From contig OZ024750.1 in NCBI GenBank assembly GCA_964016885.1, forward strand, positions 19,902,001 to 19,966,000: a DNA stretch of 64,000 nucleotides. The letters are read 5' to 3'. Origin of the DNA: Eledone cirrhosa (Eukaryota). The notes beneath the pieces were generated by a model. That model saw only the letters and a program-made list of their open reading frames with translations. It had not been told where the DNA came from and did no database searches. Below, piece by piece: positions 6,970-24,335 of the stretch (positions within the stretch are counted from its first letter, which is position 1; each line of letters opens with the position of its first letter). Both the position numbers and the translations under genes were made by a program.

Positions 6970-7744
6970 ATAAATTATCGAGATTCGCATTTCGGCCCAC
7001 GAAATAACGAAAAACAACCTCTGATATGTGCGGCAAGTGCTCAATGATTCCTTTGAACCAGAGCTATAACAAACGTTAAAGGCCAAACACACTGAGACGA
7101 TGGTTAAACAATCATTCGCATAGCCAAAAAAACGATCAAGTAATTCGGGTATTGAAAATTTACCCGGACCCCTGGAAGGTTGGTAAAATCCAGTATATGG
7201 GTTTCTGCGGCTCCTAAATCAAGTACCGTCCGCTTACATAAATAATGTCAGGCTTCTGGTAAGATGATTGAACAAGGAAGCCACTTTCTCAACAGGTTTT
7301 AGTTCAATGATAATATAAGGACTGACTATTGCTGACCCCACGTGGAGATCGGCAAGTGAGCCAACCCCTATATTTGGCGAATGAATTCAGTTGTGTATAT
7401 TTTTGCAAGAATGCAAAAACACCACAAATCGAATAGAGTTCTCAACAGAAGGGTTAACATTAACATAAGCTATTCATCAGTCAATAGAATCAACTAAAAA
7501 ATCAAGAAAATTAAGTGGTCAATAGCTAGAGTCTGGAGAATAATACAAACATAAATTATCGAAATTCGCATTTCGGGCCACGAAATAACGAAAAACAACC
7601 TCCGCGATGTGTGGCAAGTGCTCAATGATTCAGATGAACCAGAGCTATAACAAACGTTAAAGGCCAAACACACTGAGACGATGGTTAAACAATCATTCGC
7701 ATAGCCAAAAAAAACGATCAAGTAATTCGGGTATTGAAAATTTA
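6970..7744 (+). mobile_element. non-coding ~581-bp-unit element with ~190-bp terminal direct repeat, flanked by (TA)n; structured-RNA candidate (copy A)
   Basis: 6970-7162 is repeated at 7551-7744; shares ordered conserved blocks with 23670-24335; no credible ORF. Confidence 0.75.
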
Positions 7745-7809
7745 TATATATACAAAGAGGATGGGGCATAAATATCTCCTACATCTTTTTTTATCACCCA
7801 TCAGAATGT

Positions 7810-9350
7810 GACATTGTGAAAGGTCTAACCGTGTTGGCGATGTTTCCTACCCTCGTCCTCTATCTGGTACCACCACATCGTCTCGGCGACCATCTAAAAT
7901 ACCGTACGATTCACTTACAAACACAACAGTGGGTGACATTCTTAGAAATATCTCCAGCGGCTTATGCAACCAGGCGAACCAGGCGAACCCAAGTCTGATG
8001 GTACATAGCATAGCACAAACTCGAAGGCTTTTCCTTCGCTGTTGGTTATGTCCTACCAAACAACGTTTTTTCGGATCATAGAAGATTGCCCGTATCGCGA
8101 GATTCGGGTCTTTCAAAAACAACACAGCAATTCCATTGCAGATCTGTCGACTAGGACATATCATAACCCCGTGGTCCCCGATGTCGTGTGGAGAGAGGTC
8201 GTGTTTCGAAATTCTGTTCTGGGTGCGCGACCCTACTATATTCTGTGAACTGAGGTAGTTCAGAAGGTATACCTACTTCCAGCACGATATTTTTGGGGCA
8301 ATATAAACAGTTTTTGTAAGTGAGGTGTTATCCTTTATTTGTTACATTTATTTCGTGTTGTATGTGTTTATGGTAGCGTAAATTGTACGGTTTGTTTCTC
8401 GTTGTTGAGTTTGCTGATGTGGTTTTGATAGTATTTGAGATGTTGTTGGTTTCCGTGATGTTAGTTGTGATGTTGTTAGTGGTGTAGAGTGAAGTTGATG
8501 GTGTGGATGGAGTTGAGGGCATCGTTATTTTTTATGTTTAGTCTTCTTTTACTTTCCGTTTGATGGAAACATCTCCGTTACGACAAAATCCATGCGCCAA
8601 ATCGGGGAGGGGCATGTATTTCTTCGGGTAGTTGTTGTTGACGTTGGAGCTGATGTTGCTGTAGGTATTGTAAGAATGAAGGTAACGGTGTTAGTAAAAA
8701 GAGGAGAGAAAAGAATACTGGAATATGAATCTGGAACATACGTATTGATAGTGGTAAATCTCGCTCATCTTAGTCAAAATAATATACACTTGAAACCCAT
8801 AGCCATTTACGTTTTACTGAATTATAAAATACACTCTTGATTATTGTTCTTGTTTTCTATCAGGTCAGATGTTGATTTAAGGCTCATTCCGTCTCTCATC
8901 TCTTCCACGTTGATGAATACTTTGTCGATGCTTTGGGTCGCCACTACGCAAAAAAAAAAAAACCCCAAAACAACTGGCTGCTGGGTGTCCTTTTAATGTT
9001 GCCGGCATCCGCTATTTTTGTTTTACTTGAAACCACGCCTTTCATTACTTGAGTGTTTAGCTGCCTTGCTGGATGGTTCGTCAACGCAGTGCTTAATAGA
9101 ATTCGTGGATGGCTAGCTGCCTGAGTGGTTTTCCATTAATATTTTTGTTTTTGTTGACATAGTCGCTGTTGCTGTCGTTGTTATCGTAGTTGTTGTTGCT
9201 ATCGATGTTTTTTGTTAGTGGTGGCGACCTTCTTGTGTTGTTTTTGTAGGTTGGGGGACATTGGTAGTGTTCGCAGTATAATTGTTGTTGCTGCAATTTG
9301 GACAATTGCTGAAATCATAACTCATGCTTTTCAGGTGGAAAATACGTTTG
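7810..9350 (-). mobile_element. old degraded Tx1/L1-like LINE (ORF1 remnant + APE endonuclease start of ORF2)
   Basis: GIAVLFLKDPNLAIRAIFYDP..R, DITNSEGKAF, LEIFL...VVFVSESYGILD..RD resemble APE motifs (GVAIL, D..GR, GDFN.ILD); upstream N/T/S-rich tracts like the ORF1 at 1-1255. Confidence 0.55.
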
Positions 9351-22911: not shown

Positions 22912-23035
22912 ATTGTTTCTACTTTTGGCAAAAGGCCGGCAAATATCCCAGTACATTACTGGTACTTTATTTGATCGACACGCGTAAGGATGAAAAGCAA
23001 AGTTAACGTCGGCAGGATTTGAAATCAGACCATCT
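22912..23035 (-). mobile_element. partial SINE (another partial + copy at ~23298-23380)
   Basis: Family tail and central domain. Confidence 0.75.
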
Positions 23036-23669
23036 CACAATAAAAAAAAATGAGGATGAGGAGTTTCTCGTCATATTCCGTAAAATATTCTTTGTCTTGT
23101 ATATATGTATATAATTATATATATACATATATATGCAATTAACAGTAGCCATATATTCTGAATTGTTTAGATGTCTACATATTAAATATATGTATATGTT
23201 TATAAACATTAGTGCAGTCTCGGATACACTCTCTCCCTCTCTGTACATATATAAATTTAACTTAGTCTTCGACTGTTAGCAGACTACATTATATATTTCA
23301 CCCTTATGTGGTCGAGAAAATAAAGTACTAGCAATGTACTGGGATATTTGCTGGCCATTGTGCCAAACATAGAAAAAATTATATATATATATATATATAT
23401 ATATATATATATAGCTGTGTGTGTGTTGTGTGTGTATATATATATGTGTGTAGGCGTGTGCGTGTGCATGTATGTGTGGTGTGTATATATATGTGTGTGT
23501 GTGTATATATATATAATATATATATATATATATATATATATATATATATATATATATATGTGTATGTATATATATATATATATATATATATATATATAAA
23601 TAAATATATCAATATGAGTTAGTAACTCTGTATTTTATTTGTATAATATATATATATATATATAATATA

Positions 23670-24335
23670 TATATTAGAAAGATCGAGTATCGAAAAATCG
23701 GCGCACGAGTTCACGAAAAACGAAATTCGATATGAGCGGCAGAGGGCTCAATAATTCAGATGAATCAGAGCTATAACTATCGTTAAAATACCGTCACATA
23801 TAGAACAAGTCTACAATCAACCATACGATTTAAAATCGATAAAGGAAGATTCGGGCCAAACAGATAAAAAATATCAATAAAACAATACGTCAATAATTTA
23901 AATGAATGTAAAATCATACCCGGACCCACTAGAAAGGTGTTAAATCTAGCTTCATGGGTTTCTGTAAATCCTTAGACAGTACTCTATCAGCTCACATATA
24001 AATATAAAAGCCTACTAGAATAAGTGGAACGGAGTTTACGTTGTCAACGAGTTTTATCCTGGCGGCAAAGGAGTCAACTAGCGGTGAAAAACGCACATGG
24101 CATTAGACAAGGGAGATGACCCCTATATCCGCGAAAAAAATTCGAGTGAATGTGGAAATACACATATCGAATTAGAGTGCTCAATAGACATGTTAAAATA
24201 AAACAAAAGCTATTCATCACTCAATAGAATCGACAAAAAATGAGCAATAAAATTAACTGGTGGATAGCTATGTCCAGAGCTAAATATATTAGAAAGATCG
24301 AGTATCGAAAAATCGGCGCACGAGTTCACGAAAAA
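23670..24335 (+). mobile_element. non-coding ~615-bp-unit element with ~50-bp terminal direct repeat in TA-rich tract; structured-RNA candidate (copy B)
   Basis: TTAGAAAGATCGAG...CACGAAAAA at 23674-23720 is repeated at 24289-24335; conserved blocks colinear with 6970-7744. Confidence 0.75.

Follow-up and report, generated by a model that had tools for sequence, protein, structure and literature searches.

Two insertions in (TA)n tracts

The 64,000-nt stretch of Eledone cirrhosa DNA analysed here (contig OZ024750.1 of assembly GCA_964016885.1, positions 19,902,001 to 19,966,000; hereafter the window, whose own coordinates are used throughout) contains two insertions of a non-coding element, copy A and copy B, each set in a (TA)n tract. 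Copy A consists of one 581-bp unit plus a repeat of ~200 bp of its left end, or ~1.33 units: positions 6962-7162 recur at 7543-7744 with a period of 581 (blastn 94.8% over 194 bp), giving a full unit at 6972..7552 and a partial second unit at 7553..7744 that is 95% identical to 6972-7162. Copy B, which represents a second subfamily, consists of one 615-bp unit plus a 55-bp repeat of its left end, or ~1.09 units: positions 23666-23720 recur at 24281-24335 with a period of 615 (blastn core identical at 51/51 positions), giving a full unit at 23676..24290 and a partial second unit at 24291..24335. The left ends of the two copies fall at the same unit position within a few bases and show a short TA microhomology of a few bases; the right ends are not alike, and TA tracts adjoin all four ends (6943..6972 to the left of A, resuming briefly at 7745-7752; 23504..23675 to the left of B, resuming at 24340-24451). 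An earlier note, made from the letters alone, had described each insertion as a unit plus a direct repeat of its start, lying in (TA)n and beginning at a homologous position, and the blastn periods of 581 and 615 bear this out. No target site duplication could be read at either insertion, and no third copy was found within the window. Read on the minus strand, which we take as the putative RNA sense, both insertions (2/2) are a 5′-truncated partial copy, like a pseudo-long terminal repeat (pLTR), and then a full copy whose 3′ end is fixed, at ~6970 in copy A. The TA tract to the left of A lies in the tail region of a tRNA-like short interspersed element (SINE) with A-box- and B-box-like sequences (6755-6940), a 3′ fragment of which is also found at ~23295-23378, about 290 bp to the left of B; this SINE may resemble the tRNA-derived SINEs of octopus.

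Units A and B are strongly diverged, and their sequence similarity marks them as homologous far beyond chance, with a local alignment score of 497.5 against a mean of 252.5 and a maximum of 289.5 in 300 shuffles, and nhmmer E values of 7.7e-32 and 4.1e-36. Depending on the aligner, their identity over gap-free columns is 72.7% (550 columns) or 64.2% (559 columns, MAFFT), and the conserved blocks named in the earlier note are all colinear between them. The GC content of the units is 36-38%, and their minus strands are T-rich (36-41% T).

A dispersed family in public sequencing contigs

Part of unit A is present in four public sequencing runs, which come from one study and at most two samples and were searched as contigs only. 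Contigs matching 6975-7556 at 80% likeness numbered 1416, 1584, 1317 and 42 in the four runs, of which 420, 424, 390 and 10, respectively, were at least 99% alike. Because summed contig depth is no copy number, we can only infer that the copies are many; most single contigs listed have a depth of 6-30. The head-to-tail joint itself (7553 to 6975) was found in one run (X1) at a depth of 86.5. At 13 of the 40 variant rows shown (the best 40 of 66), at least 97% of the depth differs from copy A, and these 13 near-fixed differences over 581 positions put copy A roughly 2% from the family majority. At 5 of the 13 sites (7022, 7025 and 7051-7053) the second repeat of A carries the majority letter, which is compatible with repeats that were identical at insertion and decayed later. 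The contigs also contain a B-type loose end at 7035. Taken together with the two genomic loci, these sequences describe a dispersed non-coding repeat family.

Among the rows shown, leaving aside the near-fixed ones, polymorphic T>C changes on the plus strand (A>G on the minus strand) outnumber A>G changes by 7 to 2, an excess that could reflect wobble tolerance or A-to-I editing of a template RNA.

A conserved predicted fold on the minus strand

A predicted RNA fold is conserved on the minus strand and not on the plus strand. In our main comparison A and B were folded separately, and base pairs with a probability above 0.3 in both copies at aligned positions were counted. The minus strand gave 46 shared pairs with 8 compensatory and 5 one-sided changes, and the plus strand gave 16 shared pairs with 0 compensatory and 1 one-sided change. 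Among 25 column shuffles that preserve conservation, the maximum was 16 shared and 0 compensatory on the minus strand and 11 and 1 on the plus strand. The MAFFT alignment gave the same picture, with 37 shared, 6 compensatory and 4 one-sided on the minus strand against 11, 0 and 1 on the plus strand, and a maximum of 13 shared and 2 compensatory in 56 block shuffles. Single-sequence folds (z of −4.0 on minus vs −2.5 on plus for A, and −2.38 vs −1.58 for B) and consensus folds (−25.9 vs −15.7 and −54.4 vs −37.2 kcal/mol) likewise favor the minus strand. When DNA energies were used, the strand asymmetry disappeared (27 vs 24 shared pairs), which points to RNA as the folded molecule. A nested model of 17 helices and 79 pairs can be fully paired in both copies on the minus strand, with 10 compensatory and 10 one-sided changes, at a cost of 9.7 and 3.9 kcal/mol above the minimum free energy; the same model on the plus strand loses 16 of 158 pairs.

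These results reverse one claim of the earlier note, which had read G-U pairs as favoring the plus strand; as a candidate RNA the plus strand is rejected by its 16 shared pairs and 0 compensatory changes against 46 and 8. The misreading can be attributed to an 18-bp irregular duplex that is able to form on either strand. The individual pairings listed in that note fared better: the change from CTGGA/TCCAG to CTAGA/TCTAG is truly compensatory in the comparison of A and B, the AGCTATT../..ATAGCT pairing exists as part of the 18-bp helix, and the CGGG/CCCG helix closing a variable loop is present, with loose ends of reads at 7140 revealing further variants of that loop.

Some observations temper this reading of the fold. 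The covariation rests on two sequences without a test of the R-scape type, and the 79-pair model was assembled by hand on the minus strand and is hence biased toward it. Stem counts made without energies are at most marginally above the null (7, 14 and 7 vs null maxima of 6, 16 and 9). Variants among the reads discriminate little between strands: 13 of the 40 rows shown fall in model helices, 6 of which keep the pair on the minus strand and 5 on the plus strand (P ~0.19), and an earlier count gave 9 of 23 on the minus strand (7.9 of 26 expected) and 0 of 10 on the plus strand.

Anatomy of the predicted fold

Read 5′ to 3′ on the minus strand, the predicted fold begins with an AU-rich linker, continues with a stem carrying a UU bulge and the 18-bp helix, a hairpin of variable length and a hairpin domain (7369-7318), and then with a possible long-range helix enclosing a long hairpin, an AGAA segment, two adjacent helices and a three-way junction, with a 3′-terminal hairpin last. 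The linker spans the unit junction (7540..7560; B 24281-24295), lies outside the shared helices, shows TA microhomology at the fixed end and is the putative priming site. The 5′ domain (7440..7539; B 24179-24280) is formed by a hand-picked UCUC-CAGA/UCUG-UU-GAGA stem, which in B reads GCUC-UGGA/UCUA-UU-GAGC with 2 compensatory changes, and this stem encloses the 18-bp irregular helix (7527-7510/7485-7468). The helix contains CUGAUGA (GUGAUGA in B), and the family-majority letter at 7515 restores a G-C pair within it; C-A mismatches are also seen on the minus strand in this helix (7468-7527). The variable-length hairpin (7385..7434) pairs AUUCG/UGAAU and UUGUG/CACAA, in B AUUCG/CGAAU and AUGUG/CACAU, and the hairpin domain that follows (7318..7369) has an inner helix (7349-7345/7339-7335) with 2 compensatory changes.

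In the 3′ half, the long hairpin (7207..7284) is predicted in both independent folds, and its closing helix, GUGGC/GCCGC in A and GUAAA/UUUAC in B, shows 3 compensatory changes and 1 wobble change. It is followed by a conserved unpaired AGAA (7206-7203) and then by the two adjacent helices (7146..7202), ACCC/GGGU with an inner CUGGA/UCCAG, and CGGGU/ACCCG closing the variable insert. The predicted three-way junction (7024..7092; B 23730-23799) comprises outer helices, a UAAC/GUUA hairpin and a second UU-bulge stem, GCUC-UGGUUC/GAAUCA-UU-GAGC. A possible long-range helix (7011..7300), also hand-picked, would close this half by pairing 7300-7293 with 7023-7011 (AAAAC/GUUUU plus CUG/CAG, the latter UCG/CGA in B), with 2 compensatory changes. 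The predicted 3′-terminal hairpin lies shortly before the fixed end. Between the multi-helix domains, short segments predicted to be unpaired are conserved, namely AGAA, UUGA.AA and the two UU bulges preceding GAG.

In the left repeat of A, 7051-7053 is a private block change of three bases that falls in a tetraloop and leaves the stem intact; the read majority, the right repeat of A and copy B have the other loop.

Known RNA and element classes

Neither copy matches an RNA family in Rfam. No Rfam model came near its gathering score for A or B (6 and 1 rows at E up to 10), and across the whole window the best 150 of 304 Rfam rows were sub-threshold, nearly all being microRNA models on microsatellites or palindromes. 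A core scan and a relaxed descriptor, allowing up to 1 core mismatch, found no hammerhead common to A and B; the descriptor returned 0 candidates on either strand of B and on the minus strand of A, and 1 on the plus strand of A (CTGACTA with GAAT) that is absent in B. The CUGAUGA at 7480 on the minus strand was rejected as a hammerhead core, as it has no GAAA and no stem II, reads GUGAUGA in B and lies inside the 18-bp helix, and a CAGAUGA on the plus strand likewise has no GAAA. By eye, likenesses to hairpin, hepatitis delta virus, twister, pistol and group I ribozymes, and to selenocysteine insertion sequences, box C/D RNAs and telomerase templates, were in no case present in both copies, and none was scored in Rfam. 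The earlier note had seen no open reading frame (ORF), no tRNA head and no recognisable hammerhead, and all of these statements hold: the longest stop-free frame is 82 aa with no Pfam match above cut-off, ARAGORN finds 0 genes and Rfam has no tRNA match, and the hammerhead searches are as given above.

The short frame and the missing Pfam match, together with 27 of 32 indels that are not multiples of 3, also make decayed coding sequence unlikely. A long terminal repeat (LTR) element, including a terminal-repeat retrotransposon in miniature, does not fit repeats that share a start but measure ~200 and 55 bp, with no TG..CA and no target site duplication (primer-binding site and polypurine tract were not searched), and a tRNA-derived SINE does not fit the absence of ARAGORN genes in the window and of an Rfam match, or the many runs of at least 4 U on the minus strand. 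As for a satellite, both copies comprise 1.1-1.3 units and are dispersed; TRF stops at a period of 500. A Helitron or other single-stranded-DNA rolling-circle element, with the repeat as read-through past a terminator, would be expected to have a fixed start, a variable overrun and AT-rich targets, but is highly improbable given that the boundary does not begin with TC, that the copies have no CTRR end in common (CTAT in B), and that pairing is strand-specific only with RNA energies.

Exact-pattern scans found 0 and 0 loci in viral contigs, 11 in prokaryote genomes and 17 in metagenomes, all 28 of which are chance matches (best nhmmer E 0.13). Our searches of the literature turned up no description of the element; it may exist as an unannotated consensus in Repbase, in Dfam or in the curated library for O. 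vulgaris, which has 190 Penelope-like families.

A Penelope-like remnant in the same window

A second (TA)n-inserted family in the window has the classic structure of a Penelope-like element (PLE). It is represented by a Hydra-type PLE remnant (28381-30697), whose fixed end lies in (TA)n downstream of the ORF, and by short forms at 4758-4953 and 20424-20632. In the remnant an inverted 5′-truncated arm joins a direct copy that begins in the ORF's C-terminal end (29322-29489, plus strand), followed by a 1.2-kb pyrimidine-rich 3′ untranslated region (UTR) with an 83-bp tail on one side; its sense strand is T-rich (39% T), similar to the minus strands of the focal element. A first protein search with the remnant gave no match. 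Five relatives of the ORF piece end in LLNK-SEL-CRH or LLNK-DEL-CRH and have weak GIY-YIG scores, and longer relatives of one such protein bear the reverse transcriptase (RT) motif GLYRDDGL, though Pfam gave these longer relatives no RT match; Hydra proteins listed by Craig 2021 bear the motif too. A hammerhead is reported to be present in every Hydra element (Craig 2021, PMC8557442); the relaxed descriptor found no hammerhead candidate in 29325-30700 of the remnant. The remnant establishes which polarity rule applies in this genome, and it shows a suitable enzyme class to have been active here.

The pentamer UUGAG occurs on the minus strand three times per unit in A (7444, 7292, 7043) and in B (24224, 24183, 23750), never on the plus strand, and forms a UU-bulge stem twice per unit in both. 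It also occurs four times in the 262-nt 3′ end and tail of the second PLE family (28379-28640, minus strand). The numbers are small, and UUGAG is a possible protein-binding motif common to the two families.

Origin and mechanism

We favor the reading, at a probability of roughly 60%, that the element is a non-autonomous passenger of a (TA)n-targeting PLE, copied from its minus-strand RNA by priming at nicked TA DNA, with one unit copied and a stop in the next. The order seen on the minus strand in both copies, with a fixed 3′ end and a variable 5′ end, is that reported for PLE insertions, in which a full copy is preceded by a 5′-truncated partial copy (Craig 2021, PMC8557442). Insertion into (TA)n without a discernible target site duplication, as in Naiad, Hydra and Neptune types, is likewise seen in both A and B. 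The same source lists (TA)n-targeting Naiad and Hydra families in Octopus, describes the Naiads as biased to (TA)n and without canonical hammerheads, and reports that Naiads and Chlamys form partial tandems without a ribozyme. The PLE protein of the anole cuts AT-rich DNA, its reverse transcription begins at a stem-loop internal to the RNA, and hammerhead cleavage is dispensable for it in vitro (PMC11167929). The interpretation in the earlier note stands as regards a non-coding repeat, a conserved RNA fold, PLE-like architecture and no hammerhead, and falls in taking the plus strand for the RNA.

What we envisage for transcription, for the form of the template, for priming and for the partner is as follows. 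A minus-strand RNA longer than one unit, arising by read-through of tandem copies or as a circle, would fold and bind a PLE RT-endonuclease. The enzyme would nick (TA)n, and the freed TA 3′ end would prime in the AU-rich linker at the unit junction. The RT would then copy the whole unit, cross the junction and halt at a point that varies; the resulting insertion of 1.1-1.3 units would be fixed at one end and ragged at the other. The predicted fold likely serves RT binding and priming, and two long-separated subfamilies would probably have retained it through selection on RT binding or on the stability of the RNA rather than for a host function.

Several findings weigh against this reading. The tail and the inverted 5′ copy that are optional in PLEs are absent from A and B, and no significant sequence link was found between the focal element and the PLE remnant (best blastn E 0.22, nhmmer E 2.6). 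Cephalopod Naiads are reported to have been long inactive, and non-autonomous Chlamys are generally 3′-similar to their partner (both PMC8557442); a search of the Craig 2021 supplement with 5 motifs of the element gave no relevant match and one chance match. Contigs are deeper toward the fixed end, though not evenly so: for the three large runs, summed depth is 25,000-191,000 over 6975-7114 and 5,000-27,000 over 7335-7454, and it climbs back within 7475-7534 (to 26,000-46,000 at 7475-7514), so that this gradient can do no more than hint at copies truncated from the right.

Alternative explanations

Some elements of the R4 clade target TA-type microsatellites. The element could depend on a long interspersed element (LINE) partner of the R4/Dong or RTE type, acting on a linear monomer RNA with head-to-tail repeats made by template jumps of the RT. 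All shared helices fall inside a single monomer delimited by the fixed end, none of them crossing the unit junction, a 3′-terminal hairpin is predicted, and Dong-R4 and RTE families are listed as recently active in O. vulgaris (PMC13282606, Table 1). Yet template jumps would not usually be expected to leave a partial tandem in both copies, the internal junction carries neither poly(A) nor a repeat tail, and there is no tRNA head, making a LINE partner an unlikely explanation.

Quite unlikely, too, is a retrozyme-like cycle with an undescribed ribozyme, in which a minus-strand multimer self-cleaves, the monomers circularise and a PLE RT copies the circle slightly more than once. Insertions of 1.09 and 1.33 units, with the repeat of B identical to its partner, and the conserved unpaired AGAA, UUGA.AA and UU bulges between helix domains would fit such a cycle, by which animal retrozymes, with a hammerhead, propagate (PMC7229834). 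Against it, no Rfam ribozyme was found at E up to 10 and no hammerhead candidate common to A and B, the circular folds are no more stable than the linear ones (−152.9 and −134.9 vs −157.4 and −141.4), and Naiads and Chlamys make partial tandems without a ribozyme (PMC8557442).

We regard as very unlikely that a structured cellular or viroid-like RNA of unknown kind was retroposed and became a high-copy passenger, its fold reflecting the original job. The fold is large and multi-branched with no Rfam match, and no likeness was found to the PLE UTRs examined. But insertions of both diverged subfamilies have the same fixed end, and among the variant rows shown A departs from the read majority at only 13 of its 581 positions, which indicates that the fold was kept in mobile lineages; moreover, conservation is confined to one polarity, and the structure is branched rather than rod-like.

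Relation to known systems

The passenger of a (TA)n-targeting PLE that we propose has its nearest parallels in four groups. Like animal non-LTR retrozymes, which have likewise been proposed as PLE passengers, it is non-coding and structured with head-to-tail units and a GC content below 45% (PMC7229834; preprint 10.64898/2026.07.22.740005), but it lacks the type I hammerhead given as their defining feature and its unit is ~600 nt as against ~300 typically (PMC7229834); both of its copies in the window, moreover, run to only 1.1-1.3 units per locus. Chlamys PLEs of the non-autonomous kind, MRC1 for example, are also non-coding partial tandems that form pLTRs, and their clade mostly lacks hammerheads and prefers microsatellites, as the element does; those of the MRC1 type differ in that they occur in green algae, target (CA)n or (C)n and are usually 3′-similar to a known autonomous partner, and the available part of PMC8557442 describes no conserved large fold of the kind predicted here. 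With the Octopus elements Naiad_Obim, Naiad_Ovul and Hydra-1_Obim it has in common a (TA)n preference and a fixed 3′ end, and with the Naiads U/G-rich 3′ ends and the lack of canonical hammerheads; the Octopus elements differ in encoding RT and GIY-YIG, and by eye the element has no similarity to the Naiad 3′ ends or the Hydra-1_Obim hammerhead region given in the same source (PMC8557442). Poseidon PAc of Anolis (Frangieh et al. 2024, PMC11167929) resembles our model in its AT-rich nick and internal, structured RT start, but is autonomous and has a hammerhead and a tail with two starts. A large, strand-specific predicted fold with compensatory changes, in a passenger without a hammerhead, appears to be new.

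The element bears on how PLE proteins recognise their RNA and how PLEs without hammerheads process multimeric transcripts. A binding region has been placed, in vitro, in the first 172 nt of one ORF (PMC11167929). A passenger with a predicted 600-nt fold, present in two subfamilies 27-36% apart and in what seem to be many copies, would be a natural minimal substrate, on which a deep covariation model could be built and RT recognition or self-cleavage tested directly. Among retroelements, PLE RTs are the closest relatives of telomerase RT. This kinship would make a structured template RNA acting in trans relevant to the origin of telomerase RNA. If the element is an ordinary passenger only, it extends retrozyme-like elements beyond the reach of hammerhead searches. 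We also entertain, as a speculation with a small chance of being right, that it is a hammerhead-free retrozyme circularised and copied through a Penelope RT, whose fold is either a new large self-processing ribozyme or an RT scaffold like telomerase RNA; in the scaffold variant, the two UU-bulge stems would serve a dimeric RT, alongside the three-way junction, and the AU-rich linker would anneal TA primers.

Other features of the window

A near-perfect palindrome of ~320 bp (about 4348-4671) has a short TA run at its centre and (TA)n after it, and is possibly two back-to-back copies of another element. Positions 17848-18922 are a probable LINE 3′ remnant with a weak zf-RVT match (E 0.019, below cut-off). 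On the minus strand, 599-1327 is a stop-free frame of 242 codons that contains 48-bp repeats rich in Asn, Ser and Thr and matches nothing in Pfam above cut-off, and at 15709-16093 a 96-bp unit is repeated in four tandem copies that are 95% alike.

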